DNA of 63,919 nt, the filler included, from Collodictyon triciliatum (Eukaryota): the NCBI GenBank assembly GCA_043381765.1. It is 8 parts of 8 records of this genome, joined end to end, with 100 filler letters (N's around TTAATTAATTAA, not from the genome) between each part and the next. Parts side by side here need not be neighbours in the genome. Positions count along the whole stretch, not along the records: positions 17,054 to 25,478 come from JBHJMP010003435.1; 7 more parts are not named here. One strand, written 5' to 3'. Positions 17,054 through 63,291 of this stretch are shown here, in pieces. Each line of letters opens with the position of its first letter. Position 1 is the stretch's first letter. The notes below the pieces were generated by a model. The model had not been told where the DNA came from and ran no database searches. It saw only the letters and a list, made by a program, of their open reading frames with translations. The translations under genes and the position numbers were made by a program.

Positions 17054-20000
17054 AAGGGGCCCAATCACATGACCGCTTCGGAGACATCTACGTGAAGCAG
17101 TCAAAGTAATAATTGATCATTTATAGACGTTTTTTTTTTTTTTTTGCCTTTATTTCTGTAAATATATATATATATGTATGCTGATCAATTTTTTATGATA
17201 GGAATGAGCAAGCTCTGGTTGAATACACAAAGGCCATGGAAATCCGCCAAAAGAAAGTCGGAAACGAGCATCCACTTGTCGCAACATCGTACCAGAACTA
17301 TGGTCATGTCTCTCTGGCTGGGAAAAAGTAGCATATATATCCATTTAACTGGTTTTAAATCTACTTATAATTTGAGAAATATTAATATGATTGAATCTCC
17401 AAGGTATGAAGAATCTATTGAAAACTACGAAGAGGCAAGATCAATCCTTGAAAAATCGCTGGGGGCTAAGCATGCATCTGTTGCCTCGACAATCCAGTTC
17501 ATTGCAAACGTTCATCTTGCCAGTGGAAAGTTCGGATTTCTAAATTACAGATATATACATACAACATTAATTATTTTATTTCTTTCTTTCAATTTTTTAA
17601 AATGAGTGTTGCTTTATATATTTCATTGTATGGATGCTATTTGGGGATAATTTTGCATCATATAATTCTAACTAATTATATAAATATCAAATTACTTTTA
17701 TCTTATATAGGAAAACTGAGGCCTTGTCCTCATTAAAGCAATCGCTGGATATTTTCATGTCTGCCCTGGGTGAAAATCATCCGAATGTTGTGGCCTGCTA
17801 TGAAATGATTGGAGACATCAGCCATGATTTGAAGGAGTATCTCTTTATTAATTATTATTACATATTTAATTGAAAACAATAATGTATTTACTCATATTAT
17901 CCTAGCTTCAAGGGTGCTTTGGAGGCGTATGCAAAGACGCTGGATATTCGCGCGAGAACACTGGGCGAAAAGCATGCTGATTATGCGACTTCCCTGGAGA
18001 ATGTTGGCAGAACAAACTTTGAGCTTAAAAGGTTAAATTTCTCTATTATATTAAAAAAAATTAAATATTTTGATTAACACTTCCAAAAACAATGAATATT
18101 CATTAATGTTCATGCATCTAGATTGGACCAAGTCGTGGAATACTTCCAAAAGGCAGCTGCTATCAGAAAGGAGACACACACAATCATGTCGCTGAAAGAT
18201 GGCTCACAAATTGACAACATTATCCGATTCATGAAGGATAAGAAAGAGCATGAAGCCGTCATTCAGCTTTACAAAACGCTGATTCATTTATTCAGCAAGC
18301 TTTACTCCATGGATTATCTTGGGATATGGAACAGCTGTGAGGAAATCGACAAGACTTACAAGGAACTGAAGCAGCATAACGAAGCAGTGGCATTCTGGGC
18401 TGAGATGAGAGACAGATTTGCTGATAAATTTGGATGGATTCACCCCAGTACATTAAACTCATGCAAATACTTGTCCGTTCATTCAAAGGAAATTGGAATC
18501 AACAGAGAGCCTGTCGAGTTTACAAGAGTCAAGGAATTCATCAGTGAAACTCTTGATGATGCAAAGCTGGATGAGGAATGGAATCGTGAACAAATAATTC
18601 CATTTTTATTCAGCATTGTCTACATGTCAAAGACCGATGAGAGCAAATCAAAGGCTGCATCTGATGCAATCACACTTTTGAATTTCATGAATGTTTCGTT
18701 CAGTGGAATGGATTTATCAAACATCAAAATTCCACATGCAAATCTCAGTAACTCAATCCTTGATGGTGCAAATCTCACTGGTGCCAACTTGGATGGTGTT
18801 GACTTCACGAATTCGATGCTTGGTGATTGTGTTTTTGATAATGCGAATATGAATAACGTGAAATTCGGAATTCCTTATGATAAATTGGAAGGACATACAA
18901 GTTCTGTCTATAGTGTTTGCTCTATTCAAGGACCAAATGGTGAAAATTGGCTGGCTTCTGGAAGCAAAGATAAAACAATACGTATTTGGGATGTAGCCAC
19001 AGGAAACCAAATCAAAACATTAAAAGGACATACAAGTTCTGTATATAGTGTTTGCAGTATTCAAGGACCGAATGTTGAAAGTTGGCTGGCTTCTGGAAGT
19101 GATGATAAAACAATACGTGTTTGGGATGTAGCCACAGGAAACCAAATCAAAACATTAGAAGGACATACAATGGATGTCAGGAGTGTTTGCAGTATTCAAG
19201 GGCCGAATGGTGAAATTTGGTTGGCTTCTGGAAGTGGTGATAAAACAATACGTATTTGGGATGTAGCCACAGGAAGCCAAATCAATATATTAGAAGGCCA
19301 TACAGATTGGGTCAGAAGTGTTTGCAATATTCAAGGACCGAATGATGAAAATTGGTTGGCTTCTGGAAGTGGTGATAAAACAATAATTATTTGGGATACA
19401 ACCACAGGAAGCCAAATCAAAACATTAGAAGGACATACAAATGATGTCGTGTGTGTTTGCAATATTCTAGGACCGAATGGTGAAAAGTGGCTGGCTTCTG
19501 GAAGTTGGGATAAAACAATACGTGTTTGGGATGTAGCCACAGGAAACCAAATCAATAAATTGGAAGGACATACAGAATCTGTCAAGAGTGTTTGCAGTAT
19601 TCAAGGACCGAATGGTGAAAATTGGCTGGCTTCTGGAAGTGGTGATAAAACAATAAGTATTTTGGATATATCCACAGGAAACCAAATTAAAATATTAAAA
19701 GGGCATATCAATGATGTCAATAGTGTTTGCAGTATTCAAGGACCGAATGGAGAAAATTGGTTGGCTTCTGGAAGTCGTGATAATACAATACGCATCTGGG
19801 ATGTAGCCACAGGAAACCAAACACACAGTCTGCAAAAACTAGAAGTTACCTACACTGAAGGAAAATACCTCGTCAAGAAAGAAAAGCCAGACGAAGTCAT
19901 CGCAGTATTCAACAGAACAAGTGATGCGATGAACATGATTGACACCAATAGAATCCAAGATGCAAGGACAGTCCAGATTATCGGCCCAAGAAAGCTGCAA

Positions 20001-20228
20001 GGTGGAAACATCCAAATCAGAAATGTCACGGGATTGAGTCAATACAACAAATCCCTCCTTCTTTCTATCGGTGCTGCTTCCTTTCATGCGGAATTTGCTA
20101 CTTATTGTGAGCAGGGTAAGTTCACCAAGTTCCAGGCCCAAATGATGGCTGAGTGCTATGAGAATGGATGGGGTGTTGAGAAGGACACCGAGAAAGCAGC
20201 TGAGTGGAGACAGAAAGCCTCAGCTTAA
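17054..20228 (+). CDS. TPR - pentapeptide - 7x WD40 - Sel1 protein (NLR-like candidate receptor), 5'-truncated
   Basis: TPR exons 17202-17327, 17404-17529, 17711-17836, 17906-18031 (kinesin-light-chain-type ...LGxxHPxVA...). Terminal exon 18122-20228 carries ANLSNSILDGANLTGANLDGVDFT, seven GH...WD repeats and CYENGWGVEKDTEKAAEW. Confidence 0.9.
18879..19823 (+). repeat. Seven 135-bp coding tandem repeats (45-aa WD40 units)
   Basis: GGACATACA at 18891, 19026, 19161 etc.; high nucleotide identity between units. Confidence 0.95.
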
Positions 20229-21061
20229 CAAGGTAAGTAGTATAATAAATGCATATTAATATATGTTCGTTAACTATATTCATTTTAGATGGAGAGATTC
20301 TCTGGGTTTTTTTCAAGCAGACCTCCGCTTTTTTCCCACAAGGACGCTCCATGAAATCAGAATAAAACCATAAAAATGAAAGCAAAGCTGATCGATCTGT
20401 TGAATCCTTTTTTCAATAGAATGAATGTGTATAGAAATAATGACACAATATTTTACAATATACCAGAAGAGATTTACACAAGTACAATTCAATATAAAAT
20501 AAAGAATATGGGTACATACTATATTAATAGAAAGTAGTAATAGTAATATTGAAATATGAATCTGATATTACAATAGCTGATCAGAATTTTACAACCGAAA
20601 AATATTTTAGAATAGGCGAATATAGTTAATGGATAGTGTAAATGAAAAAAGTGTATGTGTAATTGGCATTTGTGAAATTAAGGTCTATCCGGGTGATAGG
20701 ATTATTATACAAGCTCTATTTATTTTTTGTGGTCTAATAACCGTTTTTTAAAGATTTTTCATCTGGATTTAATGAATAAATTTTACAGGATGATAGCTTA
20801 ACGAGTATGTGAGTATGTGCATATTAATCTAGAGACTGATAATTGCAGCAACTGTGTGAGTTATATAGATATATTCTTTAAATAGAGCATAAATATTAAA
20901 GAAAATATCCAAAAGTTTAATGGTGACAAAAAACTCGCAAATTTCCTATTTTTTCAAATAAATCAGGGTGGTCGAATTCTGTTAAATAGAATTAAAGTGT
21001 AAGCACTAATTATATAAAAATGCTATTAAGTATAATAAATAAAAGCGAGAGTATACTAGTC

Positions 21062-21088
21062 CAATGTGAAAGCACAGCTTTCACATTG
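21062..21088. other. Perfect hairpin, 12-bp stem and 3-nt loop
   Basis: CAATGTGAAAGC-ACA-GCTTTCACATTG. Confidence 0.9.
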
Positions 21089-21154
21089 AACGTCAAATCA
21101 GCGCGCAAATCTAGTTGCGAGATTTAAGAATTATTTGATACAACTAATTATAAA

Positions 21155-24100
21155 ATGCAATTAAGAGCTCATCAAGCAGAGTGCAAGCAAAAAATCTCCG
21201 AGTTTTTTGAAAATGGGTACAACTGCAAGGGGCTTGTCAAGATGTTTTGCGGCTCGGGCAAGAGCCTCGTGATCTACGACACGCTTCTTGCCCACGGCGG
21301 AGACCTCTGCGTCGTCGTCGTTCCGTCTATCCATCTGATCACGCAATTCAAAAGAGACTATCTGCTCGACGAAACCAAAATGAGATACAATCAACAAAAA
21401 TATTCCAAAGAATTTGACATTCTGACTGTATGCTCTCTGGATGAATTGGGAGACTGCAAAGACACATTCACTACCGATGAAACAGAAATCACAGACTTTT
21501 TGTTTACCGAATACACACAAAAAGTGGTGTTGATTACATACCAGAGTCTGCCCAAATTTGTTAAAATTGTGCAAGAAAACGAAATATCGATACACCTAGT
21601 TTGCTTTGACGAGGCTCACCACATTTTGGGAATAAAGATGAAGCATCTGCTGTTTGGATACGATGACTCTGAGTTTGAGTTTCAGGAAAAATTTGATGAA
21701 GAGAGTTTGTATGAATCGACGAGTTTTTTAGATAGTGTCAAGAGGACCTTGTTTTTTACGGCGACGCCCAAGAACTCGAATGGCGTTGTGATGTACGAGG
21801 TTCCAGAGACAGTTGGATACATGCTGAATGACGAGTTTGACGAAAACAGTGAGTTTTCGGATGAACCTCATTGTGGACCGATGCTGTTCGAGTACACGCA
21901 CCGGAACGGCGTCGACGACCTGATTCTAAATGATTTCAAGGTGCGTGTCGATATGTATACAGACAACACGGACAAGAGTGTTTTTGAGGCCATCTCGAGG
22001 TCGATTCTGGAAACAGGCAACAGTCGGGTGCTTACTTTTCATTCAAAGAGCTTTGTGAGTACTGGTGAAAAGTCTAATGTCTCGACATTCAGCAAGCAGA
22101 AAAAAGAGTTTTTAGAGAGTTTCCAAAAGGTCTGTCGAAACGAGTTTCCAGAGTTGCAGAAAAAGTACAAGAAAATCAGGTTCGAGGGAATGACCAGCAA
22201 GACGAAAAACCGAATGAAAATTCTGCATGAATTTGACGAGACGCCGGACGACGAAATTTTTATTCTGTCGTCTTGCAGGACAATCAATGAAGGTGTGGAT
22301 ACAAAGCGAGCAAACATGGTTGTGTTTGTAGACGAAAAGCAGTCTTTTATTGAAATCACGCAAAATATTGGGAGGGTCTGTCGAAAACAAGAAAAGTTGT
22401 CTACAATTGTGATTCCATGTTATGTGGATGTAACAAAGTACGCCAATTGTGAGACGGACGATGACAGAGACATCGTGATTCGGCAGGAGATGGCAAAGGG
22501 CGGAAACTTTAATGGAATTCTGAATGTGCTGAGTGCCCTGAGACAGGAAGACCCCTACATTTTTGAGCTGTGTCTAAAGTATCCAGAAGAGTACACGGAG
22601 ACAGAAATTCGTAGCAATCTAAAAAGAAACGGGCTTGAATTGCTGGACAAAGAGTATACGCCAGCAGAGTTGTTTTGTAATTACGGATGCGAGTATGATG
22701 AAAAAAAGTCGGAAGAGAGTAATTTCAGGGACCTGCAACAGGTGATAAAGAAAAATGTGCAGGTCATCAACAATTCAGTTTTGGAACAAGATTTGTATTT
22801 GGAAAGTCCAGAGTGTAACGAAACGGAGGTTATATATAAAACGGAGACAGGATACAAAAAAACTAGAAATAAAACAAATGGTGTAAGGAGGATAGAAAAA
22901 CCAAACCGGAATATGAAAATCAATGTGCATACGAATGACGAAATTAAGGTGTTGTGGAAGATGGTATCGGATATTTCGATACAGAAAAAGGTTTTTGGAG
23001 GGTTCATAGAGTGTGAGGTAAAGAATTTGGAAACAAGTGAGGATAGATGGATGGAGACACTAGACAATGTATCAAAATATATAGATGAGAATGGCAAGAG
23101 ACCTAGTTCAAAAAGTAGGAATAAAGAAGAAAAAAGGATGGGTTCATGGGTAAAAAATCAACAGACAAATTATAAAAAAAAAGTATTTTTAATGAAGAAT
23201 TCAAGTATCAGAAAAATGTGGGAATCTTTTTTAAAAAAATATTCGAAACACTTTTTATCTGGGAAAGAAATATGGATGCAGAAATTGGAGCAAGTGAAGC
23301 AGTACATCAATCAAAACAAAAAGACGCCAAGTGCTGCTGATAAAAATCCAGAAGTCAAAACTTTGGGATACTGGGTTTCAGATCAAAAAAAAAATTATGA
23401 AAAAAATGAGAATATAATGAGAGAGCCCGAAATCCGCAAACTGTGGGAGGAATTTAGGCAAGACTATTCAATATTGTCCAATACAGAAATATGGATGCAG
23501 AAATTGGAGCAAGTCAAGCAGTACATCAATCAAAACAAAAAGACGCCAAGTGCTGCTGATAAAAATCCAGAAGTCAAAACTTTGGCAATGTGGATTGGTA
23601 CTCAAAAAAAAATTATGAAAAAAATGAGAATATAATGAGAGAGCCCGAAATCCGCAAACTGTGGGAGGAATTCATGCAAGAGTTTTCAATGTACCTTTTG
23701 TCCAATACAGAAATATGGATGCAGAAATTGGAGCAAGTGAAGCAGTACATCAATCAAAACAAAAAGACGCCTAGTGCTGGTGATAAAAACCCAGAAATCA
23801 AAAGTTTGGGACAATGGATTCAAAACCAAAAAAATGGATATGAAAAAAATGAGAATATAATGAGAGAGCCCGAAATCCGCAAACTGTGGGAGGAATTTAA
23901 GATAGAGTACCTTGACGAGAAAAAGCCGGCACGAAAATCTACAAAAATAGCGCCAACAGAACTCAAAGAAAAATCAGAAACGGAACAGGAAAAAGCGAAA
24001 AGAAAAGTGTCGCAGTACCAGGAGCTCTGCAAAAAGATGGCGACGCAGCACTCGCAAACAACGAGCGAGCAGTTTGCGAAGAATCCTGGGCAGTGGCACG

Positions 24101-24579
24101 AGTACCACGATGCGCGCGACTTTTCGTTCGAGGGTTATGTAGAGCAAGATGAGATACCAGTCAACAAGATCATAAGGTACCTGCAGAGCAAGGAAAAGAG
24201 GAGGTTGAATATATTGGATTTGGGATGTGGCAGAAACAAGATCAAAACATTTTTTGAGGGGAATCGTAATTTTAATATAACGGGCTATGACCATGTTTCA
24301 TATAATGGGTCGATAGCGTGCGACATATCGGAGCTTCCGGAGGACAATGAGTCGGTGAGTATATGTATTTTTAGCCAGAGCCTGATGGGTAGCAACTGGC
24401 AGAGTTATATAAAGGAGGCGAAGCGGGTGCTTACTTATAACGGAGAGATGATAATTAGCGAGAGTGTGGAACGGTACAATGTGGTAAAAGAGACAGTAGT
24501 TGAACTCGGATTTACAATTTTGAGAGAAGAATATGAGCCGACGAATCGATGGTTTTATATATACGGAATAAGTAATTAG
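21155..24579 (+). CDS. SF2 (ResIII/Type ISP-like) helicase + 4 helicase-associated (HA) repeats + RRP8-like SAM methyltransferase; ~1141 aa if one frameshift near 23604-23612 is corrected
   Basis: Helicase motifs LRAHQ, MFCGSGKS, VPSIHLITQ, TYQS, DEAHH, TATP, INEGVD, QNIGRVCRK. HA repeats W..KLEQVKQYI.....PS........LG.W...Q. MTase ILDLGCG, ACDISELP, IFSQSLMGSN, EAKRVL. ORFs 21155..23635 and 23590..24579 join in an A9 run that is A10 in the sister repeat. Confidence 0.88.
23267..23897 (+). repeat. Three near-identical ~220-bp coding repeats (HA domains)
   Basis: GAAATATGGATGCAGAAATTGGAGCAAGT at 23267, 23486 and 23710. Confidence 0.95.
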
Positions 24580-24959
24580 TAAGTGGATAAATATTTAGAG
24601 TATTCTTGTAAAACAAGATATGTAACCAAGTTATAATCTTTTTTATTAAAATGAATAGTCTCAAACCACTGTATTTGTTTGACGTGTTCATTGATGTTTG
24701 GTGTCAAGATTTTGTCAAAGTTATTAATAACCTTAGCAATAAAAACGTAGTAAGTAGCAATTTTATAAGCGTTTTGGTCTAATAAATGATAGTCTTTATT
24801 GTAAATAAGTTTTGATTCTTCAAAAGTTTCTCTTATGGCAGTTTGAAATATAGTTTCATTTGGTTCGAAACTGCCTTTTGGAATGGACCATTTCAAACTT
24901 CTGTCGTCTAAAATCAATAAAAATTTAGAGCAATCTATACAATAAATTTGGACTTTCCG
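24576..24959 (-). pseudogene. Nudix hydrolase ORF with no ATG start (possibly 5'-decayed)
   Basis: Intact Nudix box GSFEPNETIFQTAIRETFEES preceded by KWSIPKG. The frame extends upstream as RKVQIYCIDCSKFLLIL to a TAA at 24960-24962, with no Met. Confidence 0.75.
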
Positions 24960-25156
24960 TTACGTGGTGTAAATTGTAAAACGTGAAACGTGAGTTGTAA
25001 AACGTAAAACGTAAAACGTGAGTTGTGTGAATAATGTGCCAAAATTTTTTACGCTTGGGTGGTACAAAAAATGTCCACTTACTATTTTAAGCTTCAGAAT
25101 ACCGTACAAAACATTCAGAGAGTACAAAGCACACTAAGCATACACAAAGCATCTCA

Positions 25157-25478
25157 CCCGAAAAAAATAAGAATGCGGGTTGTGAGAAAAGTCGATCTTC
25201 GCCCAAAAAAAAGAGAATGCGGGCTGTGAGAAAAGTCGATCTTCGCCCGACAAAATAAGAATGCGGGCTGTGAGAAAAGTCGATCTTCGCCCAAAAAAAA
25301 GAGAATGCGCGTTGTGAGAAAAGTCGATCTTCGCCCGAAAAAATGGGAATGCGGGTTGTGTGAAAAGTCGATCTCCGATCTTCGCCCGAAAAAAAGAGAA
25401 TGCGCGTTGTGAGAAAAGTCGATCTTCGCCCGACAAAATAAGAATGCGGGTTGTGAGAATAGTCGATCTTCGATCTTC
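25157..25478. repeat. 44-bp tandem repeat array, ~7 copies, runs into the contig end
   Basis: Unit ~GCCCGAAAAAAAGAGAATGCGGGTTGTGAGAAAAGTCGATCTTC with point variants and two 7-nt GATCT(T/C)C duplications. Confidence 0.95.
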
Positions 25479-25578
25479 NNNNNNNNNNNNNNNNNNNNNN
25501 NNNNNNNNNNNNNNNNNNNNNNTTAATTAATTAANNNNNNNNNNNNNNNNNNNNNNNNNNNNNNNNNNNNNNNNNNNN

Positions 25579-25769
25579 ATAAAAAATAGAATAAAAAATA
25601 GAATAAAAAATAGAATAAAAAATAGAATAAAAAATAGAATAAAAAATAGAATAAAAATAGAATAAAAAATAGAATAAAAAATAGAATAAAAAATAGAATA
25701 AAAAATAGAATAAAAAATAGAATAAAAAATAGAATAAAAAATAGAATAAAAAATAGAATAAAAAATAGA
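25579..25769. repeat. (ATAAAAAATAGA)n simple repeat
   Basis: Direct reading. Confidence 0.95.
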
Positions 25770-25817
25770 AGAAAGAGAAGAAAGAAGCAGGAGATGTGTG
25801 GCCGAGAAAACATTTAC

Positions 25818-27959: not shown

Positions 27960-28995
27960 NNNNNNNNNNNNNNNNNNNNNNNNNNNNNNNNNNNNNNNNN
28001 NNNNNNNNNNNNNNNNNNNNNNNNNNNNNNNNNNNNNNNNNNNNNNNNNNNNNNNNNNNNNNNNNNNNNNNNNNNNNNNNNNNNNNNNNNNNNNNNNNNN
28101 NNNNNNNNNNNNNNNNNNNNNNNNNNNNNNNNNNNNNNNNNNNNNNNNNNNNNNNNNNNNNNNNNNNNNNNNNNNNNNNNNNNNNNNNNNNNNNNNNNNN
28201 NNNNNNNNNNNNNNNNNNNNNNNNNNNNNNNNNNNNNNNNNNNNNNNNNNNNNNNNNNNNNNNNNNNNNNNNNNNNNNNNNNNNNNNNNNNNNNNNNNNN
28301 NNNNNNNNNNNNNNNNNNNNNNNNNNNNNNNNNNNNNNNNNNNNNNNNNNNNNNNNNNNNNNNNNNNNNNNNNNNNNNNNNNNNNNNNNNNNNNNNNNNN
28401 NNNNNNNNNNNNNNNNNNNNNNNNNNNNNNNNNNNNNNNNNNNNNNNNNNNNNNNNNNNNNNNNNNNNNNNNNNNNNNNNNNNNNNNNNNNNNNNNNNNN
28501 NNNNNNNNNNNNNNNNNNNNNNNNNNNNNNNNNNNNNNNNNNNNNNNNNNNNNNNNNNNNNNNNNNNNNNNNNNNNNNNNNNNNNNNNNNNNNNNNNNNN
28601 NNNNNNNNNNNNNNNNNNNNNNNNNNNNNNNNNNNNNNNNNNNNNNNNNNNNNNNNNNNNNNNNNNNNNNNNNNNNNNNNNNNNNNNNNNNNNNNNNNNN
28701 NNNNNNNNNNNNNNNNNNNNNNNNNNNNNNNNNNNNNNNNNNNNNNNNNNNNNNNNNNNNNNNNNNNNNNNNNNNNNNNNNNNNNNNNNNNNNNNNNNNN
28801 NNNNNNNNNNNNNNNNNNNNNNNNNNNNNNNNNNNNNNNNNNNNNNNNNNNNNNNNNNNNNNNNNNNNNNNNNNNNNNNNNNNNNNNNNNNTGCGAAAAA
28901 TTATGCATACAATTATCAATATGATTTTATTATTATTATTACTATTATTATTTACAAAGTAAAATCTGAAACACAGTTTTATATCAAGGAAAAGG

Positions 28996-33985: not shown

Positions 33986-34086
33986 ANNNNNNNNNNNNNN
34001 NNNNNNNNNNNNNNNNNNNNNNNNNNNNNNTTAATTAATTAANNNNNNNNNNNNNNNNNNNNNNNNNNNNNNNNNNNNNNNNNNNN

Positions 34087-42507: not shown

Positions 42508-42607
42508 NNNNNNNNNNNNNNNNNNNNNNNNNNNNNNNNNNNNNNNNNNNNTTAATTAATTAANNNNNNNNNNNNNNNNNNNNNNNNNNNNNNNNNNNNN
42601 NNNNNNN

Positions 42608-43119
42608 TGGAACCATCGAGAGCGACATTGGATGTCGGTTCTGCCTGGGATTTCGCGGGACACAGCTGTCCACGCAGTCGGGCCGTATTGCGCAACGGCA
42701 CTTTCCAGCAGAACGTCTTCTTCTGGAGTCCACGCGCCTTTGCGAATGGAAGGACACAGAACGCGGCCCCAGCGTTGAAAGCACTGGTCCGAGTCTCTGG
42801 GCGGGCCGACCTTGCGCTCGGTCAGGGAGTCTGCAACTTTGCGCCAATTGATGCTTTTTCGGTGGTGGATATCGATGACACTTGGCCTCACCAAAGTAGT
42901 AGCGAGCCGGGACTGATCGGTGGCGTCTCCAAGCATGACGGGTTTAATGAGGGAATCATACTTGAATACGCTATCAGAGTGCACGCATTCCAGCAAAGCC
43001 TTGTCCTCGTCGGGAGTCCACGACGCTACACGACCTCGACTGCGTCGTGTCTTTTTTATATGTGCTTCTTTTTCTGTTATATTGACGGCTGTATCTCGCT
43101 TTAGTTTTTCCGTACTCAT
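42608..43119 (-). CDS. Myb-repeat transcription factor, 3'-truncated
   Basis: WTPDEDKALL...NWRKVA...RDSDQCFQRW...IRKGAWTPEEDVLLESAVAQYGPTAWTAVSREIPGRTDIQCRSRW. Confidence 0.92.
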
Positions 43120-43707
43120 CTGATATTAAGTTTGGTTAGAGAATATACGGTCATCTTTCATTTTTTTTTGACAGACTTTGTGAATTGGGTGGGATCAAAA
43201 CAGTCCTTGGAATATCAATTCTTTTTCTCCTTGATGAATATCCTCATACCTTTGCAGTTGTATCCAATTTGAAGATATCCCAGTGCTTTGGTGTGAGTTG
43301 CGCTTGGCTTATATTAACTATGTCTTTGGTAAAGAGAAAGGATGAAGTGCGATTTTGTGGTGTTAAATGTTATAAACACAGCACTTGACACCCTCATGTA
43401 ACTGTGAATGAGTTGTTAAGAATAGCGATGATGGAACGAATGAACATAAATCGATGAATCGAAATCAGTTGGATCATAATTAATCGAGTCTCGCACATAA
43501 GCTTACTTAATTATAAACCCCCCCTCCTCTAAACTATAGCACTTTCTGGTGTTCTGACTGATTGAACTACCGGAATTGTCTTGTGAAAGTTGACAAAGCG
43601 GGGGGAAAACGTGGAAGGGGAAGGATCTTTCATATTATGAAACCAAGTCATGCTTCGATTCTAACGCATTGCCCATAGTTCAAGCTGTGTTTGATTGTAT
43701 CAAAATA

Positions 43708-51022: not shown

Positions 51023-51896
51023 NNNNNNNNNNNNNNNNNNNNNNNNNNNNNNNNNNNNNNNNNNNNTTAATTAATTAANNNNNNNNNNNNNNNNNNNNNN
51101 NNNNNNNNNNNNNNNNNNNNNNTTTTTTTTGTTTTTTTGTTTTTTTGTTTTTTTGTTTTTTGTTTTTTGTTTTTTATTGGTTTTGTTATTTGTTATTTTT
51201 TGGAGCCAGTTTTGGACTTCGGTAGACACATCCTAAGAATCAAAAGAATATACAAAAGAAACCGATAAATGAAGAGAAAAAAAACTCAACGAAAGGAGCA
51301 ACACCCGTGGTGGCTGCGTTGTGGCCGTTTGGCATGGAGACAGTATCGCGGCAGAAAACGCCAAAATCCTGCGACTGCCTGAATACTAAATCCGCCACCC
51401 AGAAACCGTTCTCTTTAAGGCATTCGCGAAGTAGAAATATACGTTTGATACACTTAATGTGAAAGCTTCTGAACTCGGATGATAGGTGTTTCGATGGGAG
51501 GAGCAGGCCGCGCCTTCATGTGTGCATAGATGGCAAATGTTTCTGGCGCGAAGAGAGCGATTGCGCCAGACATAGAGCTTCTCTCTCTTTCAGGCAAAAC
51601 ATATCACACAATCACAAAAGCGAAAACAAGAGAAATTATTTGCGCAATCCATTTGACATCTCCATTTTGCAAATAATATATTCCTATTGGCAGATTTTCA
51701 ATTTATGTTATGATAAATCCTATTAAGAAAGTGAATACGCGAAAAGTCAGGGTGGTATATTTCAGCACACACAGCATCCAAAGTAGATCAATCTGAAAAT
51801 ATTGTTGGTAGATATCTGGGCACTAAACAAGAGACTATAAGCTTTTATTTGTTCAGAAAATCAGTATTCGCCTGAATTAAGCAACCGACTCGCTGT

Positions 51897-54800
51897 TTAA
51901 CGACAAGGGCCCAGGATTCCACGAACCACTCCCTCTGTCTTCACACTGTGGAGATGAGTTATGGGTATGAGATATGTAAAAGGTGAAGATATTCGTGGAT
52001 GATACAGCCTCAGCAATGAAAGCATGTTAATGTCCGAAGCCTGTTGTTGTTAAGAGGATGTAAAACATCAAAAGAAAAAAAATCAACTTAGTAAAACTAG
52101 CCTTCTGAAGCAGAGGTGTATAGTAAGTTGATGCAAACTCCGGCATGCCACACAAAAAGAATGGAAACTCTTTTTGGGTGAAATTCGGTATTTCGTCGAT
52201 TCGTTCGGTCAGTGTGTTCCATGATATGGTGGTGGTGAGTTCATTTAGATTGAAGAATATTATTCCAATAAAGATGAGGATTCCGCTTGTGACATGAAAC
52301 CTTTCAAATAATAAAAATACAAGTAAGTATACTCTTGACATAAAAACGGTTAGGAGACGAAGTACGCAAAAAAGAAAATGCAAAATGTATCCCCATAAGC
52401 AACATGACTCACCAATGGATTTTCTCCTGAAACTCAAAGTCGATAAGGCCGTACTTGTCGAAGGTCATAACAGAAACAGGTATAGTGAACAGCGACAGAA
52501 GCACAAGCAGAGTACTGGATAGGTGCAAGTGGGGGAGAACATAGACCAGCACCTCATTCACAAGACTCGTCACAACATACACTATTAAGGGTTTCCATAC
52601 TGGAAAAATATAAATAAATATATCAGCAGTAGATTATCGGCTATGAATAAAATTGATGGTGTCGTACCGCCATCACAGGTATTAGAGTAAGATTCAAAAT
52701 CTTCAGCGCCTGAAGAGTTGACGATACAATTTAATCCGTTAGAAATCAAGTCGCCTATCTCACTGGATGACCTTTCTCCGAAGCCAGGCAAATTTGTGAC
52801 GAAACAAAAGGCCAGAATGGCCAATACTTTAACAGTGTTGATATATAGGTGAAACTGCCACTTATTACCATCCTTTAGAGAATCAAAAAAGAGTTTGCAT
52901 ATTAGAGCGTTGAATGCCTTTGAAAAAAAAAAAAACTGGGACTACCTTTTTCAGTGCGACAACTTGTTTGATGACAGATGATGCGATAATGGGAAAACAT
53001 GATGATAGGAATATAAGCGTGTAGATTATGTCTTTGTGGTCTCTATCCTGGCGATTAAAAAATCAAATGGATGTTACTTGAGCGACATAATACATATACT
53101 TTAGTAATTTTGCTGTAGGCTAAATATTATAAATCATGGTTTTACATGCATATAAATAAATATGTCAAGAAATGCACCTCACTCTCAGGCATCCACATTC
53201 CTGATGAGACGATTGCTATTAAAGAGCCCAAAAATATTACTGCAGAGCCTATGATGAACTCCATGGAACATCTGTCATGAGGGGTAAAAAAAAAAATCAT
53301 TTAAAACTCATAAAGTAGGCTCGATGTAACTGTCATTATGTTCAGGCACCTTCTCCTAGGAGCTGCACACAATAATACTGTGCATAATGGCACAATAATC
53401 TGCAGTAAAAAAAAAAATAATTATTTGATGAATTTTTTTAAATGTTAAGATTTCATGCACAAAGCTTATGGGATAATGACTCTCCATGATATGCTTTGGG
53501 AACGGGAAAAAAAGAAAAAAACATTGGAAAATAAAAGGGTTTTATACCGGGTAAATAACAACTTGAGTCGAGCCTGGAGTCCCCACATTCCCAGCAAATA
53601 GACACAAAATGGAAATTGCATCCAGTATTCCCAGGATGATGTACGATAACTTTGACCTCATTACTCTGATTGGGGTCCAGTTAAGACCCCAGTCAATAAT
53701 CCATGCCATAGAATAAGTCGGAAGCTATAATCGTTTGTATGATCAAGAATTTGAGAACCATAGAGTCAAACTGTTTGGTTATTATAGTAATCATAATTAT
53801 AAAGGCAGCTATGGTGCAGTGATATTAAATAAAATGTAAGGAAAAATATCAACCAGAGGCTCTATTACTGACGCCGTGCTGTGTGGATTATCGTAATCAT
53901 CATGGCTTTCAGGATATACCCGAGTGAGAATTGCGGTGATTCCCAGAGAAAAGCACGATAATGCGACCCAGAGCGATGAGATTAGCAATGCAATAGGATA
54001 CCAATAGTCCGGCGCGTAATTGGACAATTGTTTAAAGGCGAATCGATTGGCCACAGAATTTGTAAGAAAAAACAGGAATATAAACCAGCGAAAGACATAG
54101 CGCATGACGGAAACCTTCCACGATCTGTGTAGAGTCTCTTCGGGCAACAGTCGGTAATTCCTCGAGTCGTACAAGCTATTGGACAAAGAGTAGAATGAAC
54201 CTATAGAAATGTTATCAAAGTCGGGATTTGCACAAGATTCTGAGTTGAGTGAGCCTGATGTCATCAGCGACGGTGCAGTCTTATGCTCTGGTGGAAATAG
54301 AAACGGCGACTGATTCGAGTCATGATGTGCATTCTGAGTAGTGCTTTGTTCGCCATAGTACGAGTCTCGGAGCCGGGCATTGTCGTCTGGCGAATTGTGA
54401 TGTCGTTAGTGCATGGTTAGAACTGATAGATAAAATGAAGTCGAAAAAAAAAATCAATCGATCTAGAATTATTAAAATTTCAATAATGTCTCTGGCGCAT
54501 TTATCAGCCCTTACAAATGATGCGATTGGGGAGGCTGCTAGAAGCCGAGTTCATCTGGGATTCGCCATGGTGGACGAATATGTCTGGATTGAACTTGCGC
54601 AACTTAGGAGAGCGACCGGGAGGGCGTTTGATGCGAATAGGCGATCGCAGAGAAGTACTCGCTGCAGGGGCAATAAATCCACTCGAGTATGAGCTGCCAG
54701 CACCGCCCAAAGGCCCAGAAGGAACCCCGCCAGTTGAAGCCGAGTGCATGGCGCTATTTTCGCTTGGGAAGCTGGGTGTGGAGCTTGTGTTTACCAGACT

Positions 54801-55295
54801 GGAGTGGCTGTTTGCGGACGGTTGTGAGGAAGTGTTGATCTGGGTCGGGGTTTGATCGATCTCTGGTCTCCGATCGCCCCTGCGCTGCCTTCTGAGTACA
54901 GGCGAGTATGAGTCGAATCCTGAGTCGTGGGGGAGAGAGCTGCTTGCCTGGGATGCGGCTGTGCCGAGGTTGAAGAATCGACGTGTCATCACCGGGCGGG
55001 AAACGGCGCCTGCTTTGCCTTGCTGAGTGCGGTTTGTTTGAAGCGCAACTCCGGGAAGGCGAGGCGATCGCACAGTCAGGATCTTCTCCTCGATGGCCTC
55101 GTCGTACGGGCACGAAGTCTCCTGCAGAAAGTCGACGTCGTCCGAATCGCTGTCTGAATCGGAGAGTTCTTCCACGGCTTGCTGCACAAAGACATAGGAG
55201 CCGGCCAAAGGCATGGACGAGGCGATTCCGCTGTTGGGATCGAGAGGCGTGGGATCGAATCCGCGTTGGTAAGTTTCGGGTGTGGCCTTCTTCAT
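51897..55295 (-). CDS. CRT-like (chloroquine-resistance-transporter family, DMT superfamily) transporter with long Ser/Pro-rich N-terminus; 3' end uncertain
   Basis: NSVANRFAFKQLSNYAPDYWY; TPGSTQVVI; IIVPLCTVLL; IFLSSCFPIIASSVIKQ; Cys-pair loop IGDLISNGLNCIVN...NTCDG; SLFTIPVSV; GILIFIGIIFFN. Confidence 0.72.
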
Positions 55296-56695
55296 TCTGG
55301 CGTGGGTCTTTGGTGGTGTGCTTGGGATTTTGGATCGGCGGTGTTTTGTCTGGCTTGGTCTGTGTGCGGAGAGGTAGACGCGATCGTGAGACGTTGCGGT
55401 GGGGAAGCGGAGGAAAAGAGGAGGAATGAGGTAGATCGCAATGTCTGTGTGGTTGTGGTTGGGCGTTGTGGCTGGTGTGATTGGGCGTCTGTAACGTGGT
55501 AAGAAAGGCTTCTTGGCGGGTGTGTGGCGTGTGATCGTTTTGAGCGATGATACAATGACTTACTCTATATATGCATTGAACTGCAGTTTATCTCTATTAT
55601 TAATTTGTGCATTTAGCATTGTTGCATCGATATTTGTGCTATATTATGCAACGTTAGTTAAATTCCATATTTGTCTTGCAGTGTATGGCATGAAGAAGCT
55701 CATCGGCCTTCTCGATTCCTGCGTGAAAAAACGCATTTTGTTCTTTTATGTGTCGCGCTGATATGTGTCTGTGTCCTGTCTGCTGAGACGAAGCGATGTC
55801 GTGATCGTTTTTTTTTTGTCTTAAGAAGCTTAGGGGTATCATTGGTACAGAGTTTAATTATGATACATTTAATGGTGGAATGGATGCAAACATTCTTCAT
55901 GCTTTCATGAATTCATTTTTTTTTTTATTCAGGGGCTTAAGGGTGCAGGAGATAAACATACCATCTCAGCGTCATCCGACGGTAACATGGCTGAGCACTT
56001 TATTTTGGTCTAAGATCAGAAAGTCGTTGAAATTCCAGTCCTCAGAACATCATGCAAATCATAAATAAGTAAATGAATAAGTTTATCAAACAACAATCAT
56101 CAAAACAAAAAACCGAAAAAAAAAGATAGCGAAAAACTCCACAGCTTAAGAGAGAGTGAAATGAATCACACGTCCACACATTAGATGCTATCTTAACAGA
56201 TTACTTGGCGAGATGGACACACCAAACCGTGTTGCACGAGCGATTAGGAATAAAATCTTCGACGGGTTTCCCGCTTGCTATTTTGTCTCACACCCGAAAA
56301 CTCTGCTGCAAACGCGTTTCAGAAGCGCAAAGGGAAGCACACTGCTATAAAAGGTATGATTGAATAATTGACGGGCACAGAATTCTCTCATCCTGTTGTG
56401 GGCGCTAATCGAAGCTATTTTAGCTCATGTCGATGCCAGCAGCCAAACAGGCGCTAAGGCAACGTCTGCTTCGAGACAAGCTGCTACGTGCAGCACCACC
56501 TCGTCCAAGACCTGCCCATCTGTCCCCTTACATATGAGCATGTTCACGTATTACTTTTATATTAAGATATCCTTTTCCTTTCCTTATGACGCCACATTTA
56601 TAAACGCGTCCACAACCTCCGTGTTGCCATCAGAAGGTCCGTTGTCCTGGCGCTGCCTCACTGACTTTTTTTTATTATCCCAGTTTTTGTTCTTG

Positions 56696-59516: not shown

Positions 59517-60057
59517 CTTGCATGAGAGATATANNNNNNNNNNNNNNNNNNNNNNNNNNNNNNNNNNNNNNNNNNNNTTAATTAATTAANNNNNNNNNNN
59601 NNNNNNNNNNNNNNNNNNNNNNNNNNNNNNNNNGACTCCGAAGTTGGTCAGTTTTCAAACAATTCGTAATATTCAGCCTTTAGTTTTTTTTTTTTTTGAA
59701 AAATAAAATAAAACAACTCACAGAATATACCACTTTCATCTATCTATTTATTATTTTAAAATAAAAATAAAAAAGAGAAGAAAACGTCTGCATTGAACGA
59801 AAAATCCAACCAAATAATATTGTTCGTGTGTCTGTGAATATGTAAGATGCCCATGGTCATTATCGTCTTGCATTCTTCTCCATCTAGGAGGCCAAAACAG
59901 CGCTGTTCGCCTGGATTTCACACTACCATCCTCATCGTACGCCACGATGTTACTTCGAGAGATTTGCAAGCGCTCTACAAGTCTTTCCTCGCAAGTCTCC
60001 ATGGCAAAGTCTGGCGCAGAGTCTTCTAATCACCCTGCTGACTCTTAAGCACCAAGC

Positions 60058-60517: not shown

Positions 60518-63291
60518 ATGCGAATGCAGCAAGCAGGCCGAAAGGCAGTCACAGGAAAGGGGATGAGCAGCCGCGCTGAAAATCAAGACATGAAGGACGT
60601 TCTTGGGGAGCCACTTGCAGAGGGCCTCTCGGACTTGCTGCAAGGAAAGAAGAACGAAGGAGCAGAAATACACGCCTTTCCTGATCTTGACTCTGCTGAG
60701 CCCACTCCGCCTTTGCCGTCCTATCTGCGGATGCGCCGTCGGTCTGTTGTCTGCAGCGAAACAGTAGACCCCAGTTTGTATGTGGATACCACTGGTACTG
60801 CAAAGGGTTTGTAGTACTTGACTAATTTGACTCTTTATGGGTTTATGCTATCCTGTATATATCTTATATATATTTATATTTTTTATTTCAGAAAAAAGAG
60901 GGCTTGATCTCGAGTCAGATCTGATCGGAACAAAGATTGCCAGCGGGCCCGTGACCCCAAAATCTTTTGAGGAGTCTGCTACTATACGCAGGGTCATTCG
61001 CAAAAATATCCTAATGTCACACTTGGACGATCTTCAGATACAGGCTTTAGTGGATGCAATGTTTCTTGTTTGTTGCGAGCCACAACAAGGGGTCATCAAA
61101 CAAGGTAGATGCGATTATTCGCTTTGTAATTAAACCATCACCTAATATTTCCAAGAAGATATAGTATTAGTATAGTGCTCATTGTACATAATTAAGAAAA
61201 TATTACTTGAAATCTCTGTAATTTTCTTTTAATAATCGGAATGCCTGGCTGGTATTCTCTGGTTGATACTTTTGTTTTGTTTTGTTTTGTTTTGTGACGT
61301 TTCTATTCGCTCCACTCTTTGATAAAGGTGAGGATGGAGACAACTTCTACATCATTTCACAGGGTCTATTCCACATTTTCGTCCAAAGAGAAGATGATCC
61401 GTATCCTGGAAAACTTGTATTCGTTGGGAATCCTGGAGACAGCTTTGGTGAACTTGCCTTGATGTACAACTGCCCTAGGGCTGCGACTGTCATTGTATAT
61501 TTTACATCATCGATTTCATTTGTTTTCAATAGTATCCAGCCTATATCATGTGTATATATTATATCCATGCATCGATTTGTAAAGAAAAATAACGTAGACT
61601 ATCAATTTAGTCTCAATGCGAATCAAAACTTTGGGCCATCGACCGCATTACCTTTAGAAATATAGTTGTACATTCAACTGCCAAGAAAATGAGAACATAT
61701 GTTAGTTTCCTTGAGAAAGTTCCGATTATGGGTCTGTTCTGTTTTCAGAATTTTTGTTCTCCCACACAACAAACCTCAAAGCCTTTTCATCTCGATCACC
61801 TCGTATATTTCTGGCTTTCCCTAAGTCTTTTATTTCGCGTATTAGCACCTTTGAATAAGTATGAAAAAATCAAAGTTGCCGACGCCCTTGAATCCATTTC
61901 ATTCGAAGATAAAACAAAAATCATCACCCAGGGAGACCCTGGCGACGCTTTCTACATTCTAGAAGAGGTAACTTTAAATATGAATCCTTTTGATTGTATG
62001 GATTCTTGCTAAAATGAGTGATATATATATATAAAACTAAACGAAAGCAACCAATCCATACGGAATGACAGGGAGAGGCCACTGTCTATCGTGACGGAGG
62101 AGAGCAAAGCGACCCTGTCGAATTAAAGCGTTTAAGCGTGGGGGACTACTTTGGAGAAATGTCCTTGCTTACAGATAAACCTCGTGCAGCTAATGTGGAG
62201 AGTATCGGGTATTGCCGAGTGCTTCGGTTGGACCGTGAAGCTTTCCTGCGCCTGCTGGGTCCGTGCGAAGATATTATGAAGACAAACATTACGTATTATC
62301 GACGCATCTACGAAACATTTCTGGAGGAGGTCGAGCTCCTTGGTGAGTCAATACATGTCACAAAGAACAAAAACAAAAAACGTAGCAATAAAATAGGGAT
62401 GCGCAAAAATACAAACAATGAACGAATATGTAAACAGAAAAGAAGTTAAAAAAAAAAAACAAACAAACATAAAGGAGAAATGATTGGGAGTTTACATCAA
62501 ACATAAATATTCATTCACTCCTACTTTTTTTTTTTTTTTGGTTTATTCAGTGTGGTTAAAGTTATGCCATTAAGGATTACCCTTTTTATGCTTATGGGGC
62601 CTTTTTTTTTTTTTATTGTATCTGACCAATACATTATTTGATGCTGATACACAATAAATCAAATGAAGCATCTATCACACGTGAAGAACGAGCTGCCGTT
62701 GCTGATGCACTAGAAACACATATGTACTCTGATGGAGAAGCGGTCGTTACGGAAGGTGATGTTGGAGACCGTTTCTACATCGTTGTTGAGGTAACCATCG
62801 AAAATCACTTTCGCAATTATTATAAATGAGCGAGTTAAATGCATCTACCAATGATGCGTGGATATAGAGGAGATAAATTAAAGAGGCAACATTTTATCTT
62901 TTTTTTTTTTAAACAAAGATATCACTACCAATTTTCTCCCTTTTTTTTTCTTATATGTTTTCTTTCCTATATATTTTTTTTCAATCATGCATTTGGGACA
63001 CAGGGAAATGCATCGGCCATTAAATCATCCGCAGAAGGCAGCGTCGTCGTGAAGGACTACGTCAAAGGCGACTACTTTGGGGAGGTCGCGCTGCTGACCA
63101 ACCAGCCGAGGAAGGCGACTGTCCGAGCCAAAGGTCCTCTCAAGTGCGCCACGCTCTCCACAGACGACTTCAACAAGTTGCTCGGTCCGTGCGGGCCCGT
63201 CGAGAAGGTTCTGAAGCGCAACATGCAACATTACCAGTCTGTCATCCGCGACCAGACGCTCGACTCGTATTTGGGACAGTCCTCTGCCTAG
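60518..63291 (+). CDS. PKAR: cAMP-dependent protein kinase regulatory subunit with three cNMP-binding domains, 8 exons
   Basis: Inhibitor site RRRSVVCSE; phosphate-binding cassettes [51 protein letters not shown] ends at 63291. Confidence 0.9.

Follow-up and report, generated by a model that had tools for sequence, protein, structure and literature searches.

The window analysed here, 63,919 bases from the Collodictyon triciliatum genome assembly, includes a contig on which a spliced host gene is followed by 3.8 kb of intron-free coding DNA (21155-24959). This block, here called the island, contains a predicted helicase-methyltransferase gene with relatives in giant-virus genomes and, on the opposite strand, the remnant of a Nudix hydrolase gene. 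We propose that the island is probably an endogenised fragment of a Nucleocytoviricota genome, situated in an AT-rich spacer between the spliced host gene and a satellite array. An earlier note on this DNA had described the same layout, and it holds: the host gene and the island share one contig, the host stop codon (20226-20228) and the helicase ATG (21155) are 0.93 kb apart (about 0.9 kb in that note), and the two open reading frames (ORFs) of the island converge with stop codons that overlap by two bases, TAG at 24577-24579 on the plus strand and TAA at 24576-24578 on the minus strand. The contig and the features of the island are:

17054-25478: contig with the finding, 8425 bp, flanked on both sides by artificial linkers
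21155-23635, plus strand: helicase gene, first frame, 826 aa, with superfamily 2 (SF2) core, long linker and HA units
23590-24579, plus strand: helicase gene, second frame, 329 aa, with the last HA unit and an Rrp8-type methyltransferase reaching the natural C-terminus
23266-23897, plus strand: 224-bp tandem repeat, 2.9 copies with 89% matches, corresponding to HA units 2-4
23604-23612, plus strand: frame-break homopolymer, a run of A in HA unit 3 (repeat copy 2)
24576-24959, minus strand: Nudix hydrolase remnant, 127 codons from stop to stop, no ATG

The first frame of the helicase gene contains both RecA-like domains of an SF2 helicase, recovered with the Pfam models ResIII (9.2e-13) and Helicase_C (1.7e-09), along with motifs I, II, III and VI and a set of HA units (3e-17). 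The HA model (PF03457) scores above its Pfam cut-off of 28.4 bits in both frames, with 63.1 bits in the first and 28.7 bits in the second. In an alignment of 18 sequences, comprising the window protein and 17 relatives, every invariant column is kept in the window protein, including K29-S37 (GSGKS), D152-H156 (DEAHH), T202-P205 (TATP) and Q403-R410 (QNIGR..R). The only solved structures matched by the helicase core, all weakly, are the motors of type ISP restriction enzymes. The second frame yields a match to Methyltransf_8 (PF05148; 3.7e-28, 99.3 bits against a cut-off of 27), and the methyltransferase part, formed by its C-terminal 180 residues, matches the PDB entry 2zfu_A (1.9e-13). This entry was deposited as 'Cerebral protein 1', which we take to be the Rrp8/NML rRNA methyltransferase; unlike that enzyme, the predicted methyltransferase of the window is fused behind a helicase and HA units.

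The S-adenosylmethionine (SAM) motif LDLGCG is present and aligned with that of P0027, a protein of 1149 aa encoded by an ORF of the viral locus L067. The second frame as a whole is 54% identical to, and collinear with, residues 816-1147 of this protein up to the C-terminus, and the two frames are therefore parts of one gene. From these comparisons the product is predicted to be a single protein with an SF2 helicase, four HA units and an Rrp8-type methyltransferase. Aligning the three copies of the 224-bp repeat with each other placed the frame break in the run of A, and the break in the assembly may be a homopolymer sequencing error. As it stands, the copy in this assembly is presumably not expressed as a whole protein, and the gene shows no other sign of decay. 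The earlier note had seen possible decay in both ORFs; this stands for the Nudix gene, which has no ATG and is truncated, and in the helicase gene reduces to the single frame break, the invariant residues being kept.

Relatives of the helicase ORF are numerous, with 724 proteins matching at E<=1e-3 among 6611 candidates. The best 120 of these 724 are 33-55% identical to it and cover the query nearly fully, and since 93 of the 120 also carry Methyltransf_8 the architecture is one shared with the relatives. Each of the listed relatives is a single ORF, and the metagenomic contigs that carry them reach 428 kb; no eukaryotic gene is named among them, and one is labelled as a Magnetococcales metagenome-assembled genome (MAG). 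When the 18-sequence alignment was used as the query against IMG/VR, 83 confirmed stretches at 79 loci were recovered, 41 of which are named GVMAG. Only the alignment query reached these relatives, as an IMG/VR scan with the single helicase sequence returned nothing; a scan of a metagenome contig collection with the helicase likewise found nothing. The earlier note had held that best matches to intron-containing eukaryotic orthologues would speak against a viral source; the relatives found sit in giant-virus genomes and not among intron-bearing genes of eukaryotes.

The context of the viral homologues was surveyed with 65 ORFs of at least 200 aa from seven loci, an antisense ORF inside the L001 helicase gene having been dropped from an initial 66. 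At L007 a family B DNA polymerase (PolB) is encoded 3 kb away from the homologue, with genes for DcpS, an RNB nuclease, PCNA and thymidylate synthase nearby, and at L008 PCNA and topoisomerase II are found near the homologue. Genes of the Bro-N, HNH and T5orf172 types occur near the homologues of L001, L002 and L067. A search for capsid genes covered two viral records, namely G002 and a 60-kb fragment carrying L067. The former is 283,047 bp long with terminal inverted repeats, is 100% complete by CheckV, and encodes two helicase homologues as well as a capsid protein (Capsid_NCLDV, 8e-63); no Capsid_NCLDV was found in the 60-kb fragment. The homologues occur in genomes of 100-550 kb. Because of the IMG/VR loci, the PolB, PCNA and topoisomerase II neighbours and the capsid-bearing G002, the predicted helicase-HA-methyltransferase is assigned to a giant-virus gene family, of which one genome often has several copies. 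Its character seems to be that of an accessory family with multiple copies at genome ends, and not that of a single-copy core gene.

The window protein is collinear with hundreds of metagenomic proteins at 50-55% identity along its full length. It shares with the viral relatives the domain order, the C-terminus and the helicase motifs, and differs from them in having only four HA units where the relatives have more, in its frame break and in its long end branch. The last point comes from a FastTree phylogeny of the first 600-640 residues of the window protein and 112 listed proteins of at least 900 aa (eight shorter ones were left out), in which the window protein groups in a set of six with P0004, P0055, P0042, P0009 and P0039 (SH-like support 99). 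Its highest identity in the tree set is 62%, to P0004, and its end branch measures 0.55 against a tree median of 0.22. Judging by its domains, the most likely role of the gene in the virus would be to link ATP-dependent remodelling of nucleic acids with RNA methylation. A text search found no literature description of a helicase-HA-Rrp8 fusion, and the supplements of papers might list one; the fusion is abundant in giant-virus MAGs and represents an uncharacterised viral gene family that is worth biochemical study.

Some further observations concern the family at large. The two helicase paralogues of G002 (L049 and L039) are about 1 kb apart and within 40 kb of one genome end. At L001 (8280-11753) an HNH_2 endonuclease domain is found in place of the C-terminal methyltransferase, with Bro-N and T5orf172 neighbours, and PF13391 is also listed for P0014, P0028, P0034 and P0068. 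At L007 (6967-13618) the homologue is about 2.3 kb downstream of the gene for a DcpS-type scavenger decapping enzyme, which is another link of the helicase family to mRNA cap metabolism, though not one to a Nudix gene.

The minus-strand frame of the Nudix remnant matches Pfam NUDIX (3e-09) and keeps the Nudix box Gx5Ex7REUxEExGU except for its last G, with RE..EE in place. Its best solved matches are the Nudix domains of Dcp2 decapping enzymes (4.8e-06), a weak similarity; unlike these enzymes the window frame has neither a start codon nor the N-terminal strands, and hence does not represent a complete Nudix gene. Nudix decapping enzymes exist in large DNA viruses, and the Dcp2-like ones of giant viruses decap mRNA. 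A word-based protein search with the Nudix frame gave no matches, and a HMMER search of 1.84 billion representatives gave 181 at E<=1e-3, only 4 of them at E<=1e-10. The closest relative, P0245 (278 aa), is 82% identical to the window frame, which matches only its residues 159-277. When the window frame is aligned with five relatives, it departs from every one of them immediately ahead of the first conserved strand. The Nudix gene is therefore a 5'-truncated remnant.

With a six-sequence Nudix alignment as the query, IMG/VR gave 98 confirmed stretches, 16 of the 80 loci kept being named GVMAG, with 27-64% identity over parts of the domain. Here too only the alignment query reached relatives, with nothing returned by single-sequence scans with the Nudix frame or P0245; a scan of the metagenome contig collection with P0245 also found nothing. 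One relative, P0249, shares 38% identity with the window frame (E 9e-10). It matches a gene of L081, a GVMAG contig, at 81% identity, and genes of L085 and L082 at 60-64%. Through such distant relatives a viral origin of the Nudix gene is plausible, and is weaker than that of the helicase gene. The earlier note's assignment of both genes to giant-virus types thus stands for the helicase with its HA units and was too strong for the Nudix gene. The viral genome need not have carried the two side by side.

Around the island the following features were found:

20426-21058: AT-rich spacer, GC content 0.23-0.30, between the host gene and the island
21059-21091: hairpin with a 12-bp perfect stem and a 3-nt loop, 64 nt upstream of the helicase ATG
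24968-25026: GTAAAAC-type microsatellite, between the Nudix remnant and the 44-bp array
25157-25472: 44-bp tandem array, 7 copies with 84% matches, running into the contig end

The hairpin has a predicted folding energy of -11.9 kcal/mol (z -6.9), which was equalled by none of 200 shuffled sequences. In giant viruses of the Mimivirus group, hairpins of this kind mark transcript ends, and by analogy the present one may represent the 3' signal of a viral gene once located upstream and since lost, which we regard as a lead only. The early-promoter octamer is another known motif of Mimivirus; it is absent from the island and occurs in this contig only as the reverse complement, at 17185 and 17589 within the host gene. 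A tblastx comparison of 20290-21154 and 24918-25478 with all 159 viral loci gave no matches. In the orientation of the Nudix remnant, the microsatellite and the array lie upstream of it. No exact match to the 44-bp unit was obtained from IMG/VR, and the array is the only place in the window where the unit occurs. The earlier note had the block bracketed by the hairpin and the tandem array, and both are real; however, the array merely runs into the contig end, and as it stops at a linker the right-hand bracket is also an assembly break point.

The small size of the block (4 kb), its flanking repeats and the hairpin at one side are features that a Polinton-like virus, a virophage or another small mobile element might also present, and a Polinton-like fragment had been offered by the earlier note as an alternative to an endogenised giant virus. 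However, genes for a protein-primed PolB, an integrase, a capsid protein and a packaging ATPase are all missing from the contig, the block is without terminal inverted repeats, and the homologues belong to genomes of 100-550 kb, as given above. We consider this explanation very improbable and, as there are no core genes, reject a Polinton-like element; the giant-virus half of that proposal is the one retained.

To the left of the spacer lies the 3' part of the host gene:

17185-20228, plus strand: spliced host gene, 3' part, with TPR exons followed by a large exon; the 5' end is off the contig
18096-20228, plus strand: large exon, open throughout, with pentapeptide repeats, at least 7 WD40 repeats and a Sel1-like tail
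20231-20286, plus strand: intron of 56 nt, GT..AG, in the 3' untranslated region just after the host stop codon (joint 20230>20287)

The TPR-like exons begin at 17185 and run in changing frames, with short introns between them, up to the large exon. The WD40 match to Pfam in this gene is at 1.2e-68, and the third-codon-position GC content (GC3) of the host exon is 0.36. The joints 17529>17711, 17836>17906 and 20230>20287, all GT..AG, are present in contigs of X18, which by our guess is probably a run of RNA, with 156 of the 519 X18 contigs placed being at least 99% alike; the organism of that run, or one closely related to it, therefore expresses and splices the gene. The last bin with X18 cover of the gene is 20145-20425.

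For the large exon, the closest match is a Diphylleia rotans transcript of 1219 aa in EukProt (P0125; 40% identity, 99% cover), listed with at least the TPR, pentapeptide and WD40 families, and NACHT/NB-ARC-WD40 proteins from cyanobacteria and fungi rank next. NACHT or NB-ARC is found in many of the distant relatives; the contig begins inside the TPR region and holds no NTPase domain of the host gene. An Atlas search with the N-terminal part gave weak matches (0.81). Calling this TPR-WD40 gene a candidate immune receptor would be an analogy only. The earlier note was cautious about any link between the island and this gene, rightly so: no functional tie is indicated, and such a link is rejected as having no evidence of any kind. 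Within the large exon the WD40 repeats also form a DNA tandem of about 135 bp (84-87% identity, 18880-19821), over which numerous joints and variants occur in X18 and the metagenomes, a pattern like that of a multigene family.

Sequence from the contig is found well beyond this assembly. Part of it occurs in 20 of the 24 runs listed, which derive from several studies and represent freshwater or sediment samples or carry no label. In no run is as much as half of the contig's words present, the fraction being 0.33-0.47 in 17 of the runs. For X1, X2 and X7, from three studies, and for X18, contigs were aligned at 90% likeness, these being short contigs and not reads. Over the host part and the island together the bins covered were 29/30 in X1, 29/30 in X7 and 24/30 in X2. 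The exact or nearly exact pieces are:

20338-20558: X1, depth 14.7, 0 differences (flank)
20450-20895: X2, depth 11.7, 0 differences (flank)
20529-20895: X7, depth 19.8, 1 difference (flank)
21562-21783: X1, depth 16.6, 0 differences (island)
21563-21847: X2, depth 4.67, 0 differences (island)
24688-24902: X1, depth 18.6, 0 differences (island)

Flank and island are thus both covered in runs of three studies, and the exact pieces of X1 from the two are alike in depth, as expected for one genome. X18 contains the host gene and also 24922-25478 (depth 829 and 1847), with nothing of 20426-24921; this blank says nothing on expression. As X18 covers both sides of the island, host-type sequence is present on both flanks. 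The X18 depth of 829-1847 over 24922-25478, the region of the 44-bp array, is far above that over the host gene, and the satellite may be transcribed or very abundant in the organism of that run.

Several observations weigh against an endogenised giant-virus fragment. The contig is only 8.4 kb long and has no hallmark gene (capsid, PolB, A32, VLTF3), the element holding two genes only. All proteins in the set of six that includes the window's helicase, and in the sister group of four, lie on short contigs (4-12 kb). IMG/VR contains none of them, and the best matches it offers reach 44-58% identity. The Nudix gene has no tblastn match in the 79 viral helicase loci, its family is absent from both viral records searched (0/2), and its GC3 is 0.28 against 0.47-0.50 in the helicase gene. 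At the junction, 20895-21155 is bridged by none of the records listed, and 20895 is where the contigs of both X2 and X7 end; the helicase gene also has 2-4 times the summed depth of the flank.

The last two points bear on whether the contig is an assembly chimera or contamination, with DNA of a free giant virus or another organism misjoined to host sequence. The assembly is short and fragmented, with contigs of 8.4 kb and gaps of N; the metagenome contigs break at the same base in two runs, and the depth jumps after 20950 (in X1, summed over contigs at least 90% alike, from 26.5 at 20934-20949 to 123 at 21394). X18 having both flanks and none of the island points the same way, a blank that counts for little. 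However, a chimera would need two false joins, host-type sequence being on both sides, and the viral part of the Nudix gene ends exactly where the host-type repeats start. The similar depths of the exact X1 pieces, and the presence of flank and island in the runs of three studies, also argue against it. The earlier note had asked for reads spanning the host-island junction as a check; short contigs do cover the region of 20.9-21.2 kb, none of them demonstrably bridging it. Host and island share one assembled contig, and the short metagenome contigs cover both sides at similar depth with none shown to bridge 20895-21155. Weighing these points, we regard a chimera as rather improbable and the join of the island to host DNA as presumably real.

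The excess depth raises a different possibility, that the contig is the edge of a larger, recent and possibly active giant endogenous viral element (GEVE), or that its helicase is one of a retained intact family. The surplus comes from diverged contigs (e.g. 13-28 differences per 250-300 bases), and the samples therefore contain several related helicase copies, which may belong to the same genome, to related hosts or to free viruses. Contigs that are 90-99% alike stack over the helicase gene to the multiple of flank depth noted above. At the frame break, the only defect of a gene that keeps all columns invariant across its 17 relatives, a length variant accounts for 41-65% of the depth (73.7/178.4 in X1, 40.4/62.3 in X2 and 69/108.2 in X7), and copies differing there are common. 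Of the five best-supported substitutions listed within the gene, three leave the amino acid unchanged and four fall on third codon positions, which is a hint of constraint only, with 5 of more than 500 differences counted. Furthermore, the contig ends in a repeat, so that the sequence further to the right is not in it.

Against such an element, the truncated Nudix neighbour is followed by host-type repeats instead of more viral genes, the left flank is without viral coding remnants, the end branch of the window protein is long, the codon-position count is weak evidence, and the extra depth may stem from other organisms or free viruses. A larger or active element at this site is accordingly unlikely in our view. 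The related proposal, that the helicase gene is one of several mostly open copies, 90-99% similar, in a widespread freshwater eukaryote or a persisting giant virus, with the contig as the edge of a recent or active integration, we entertain as a minority possibility. Were it true, it would give the first host link for a helicase sub-clade known only from 4-12 kb metagenome contigs.

In the favoured scenario, an endogenised fragment, about 4 kb of a giant-virus genome would have integrated into the nuclear DNA of an AT-rich, apparently freshwater eukaryote, by non-homologous insertion during an infection. The fragment would comprise one nearly intact viral helicase gene and one cut-off Dcp2-like Nudix gene. 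Endogenous Nucleocytoviricota insertions, or GEVEs, are known in green algae. Further cases are described in Euglena, oomycetes and others; small giant-virus insertions in eukaryotic genomes are well known, and the present one would be an added example rather than a new principle. Like GEVEs, the island has intron-free genes of giant-virus type in eukaryotic nuclear sequence, signs of erosion and repeats at its edge. It differs in size, with about 4 kb against the tens to hundreds of kb of GEVEs, in having only two genes and no hallmark gene, and in that its junction is known from the assembled contig alone. Provided that the junction is real, the contig is a record of an earlier giant-virus infection of this eukaryote and ties an uncultured virus lineage, with nearest catalogued relatives at only 46-58% identity, to a host. 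The near-identical sequence in freshwater and sediment metagenomes of several studies indicates that the host or the element is widespread.

The remainder of the window is separate from this contig. The window consists of several contigs of about 8.41-8.43 kb chained by artificial linkers and is not one molecule. Its seven linkers, of 100 bp each, have the form N44-TTAATTAATTAA-N44, in which TTAATTAATTAA is a 12-base all-frame stop sequence, and are located as follows:

8431-8530: artificial linker
16954-17053: artificial linker
25479-25578: artificial linker
33987-34086: artificial linker
42508-42607: artificial linker
51023-51122: artificial linker
59534-59633: artificial linker

As the linkers join unrelated contigs, features that appear to span them are artefacts, and the sequence beyond 25578 is unrelated to the contig described here. 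An Rfam search at gathering scores gave no matches in the window and an NCBIfam search gave nothing above cut-offs. The following contig opens with a 12-bp tandem repeat, ATAAAAAATAGA (16.4 copies, 98% matches, 25579-25774), right at its start, and includes a scaffold gap of 932 N (27960-28891), across which long 'ORFs' consist of X only. Elsewhere in the window no other N-free frame from stop to stop exceeds 351 aa. One open frame of 351 codons (54504-55559, minus strand) has no Pfam family and weak Atlas matches (0.81); GC content over 54001-56000 is 0.48-0.50, as against about 0.35 elsewhere in the window. Two exons of ordinary host genes were recognised on other contigs, one for a Myb R2R3-type DNA-binding domain (3.5e-22; 42559-43125, minus strand) at the start of its contig, and one for a cyclic-nucleotide-binding domain (2e-11; 62839-63288, plus strand).

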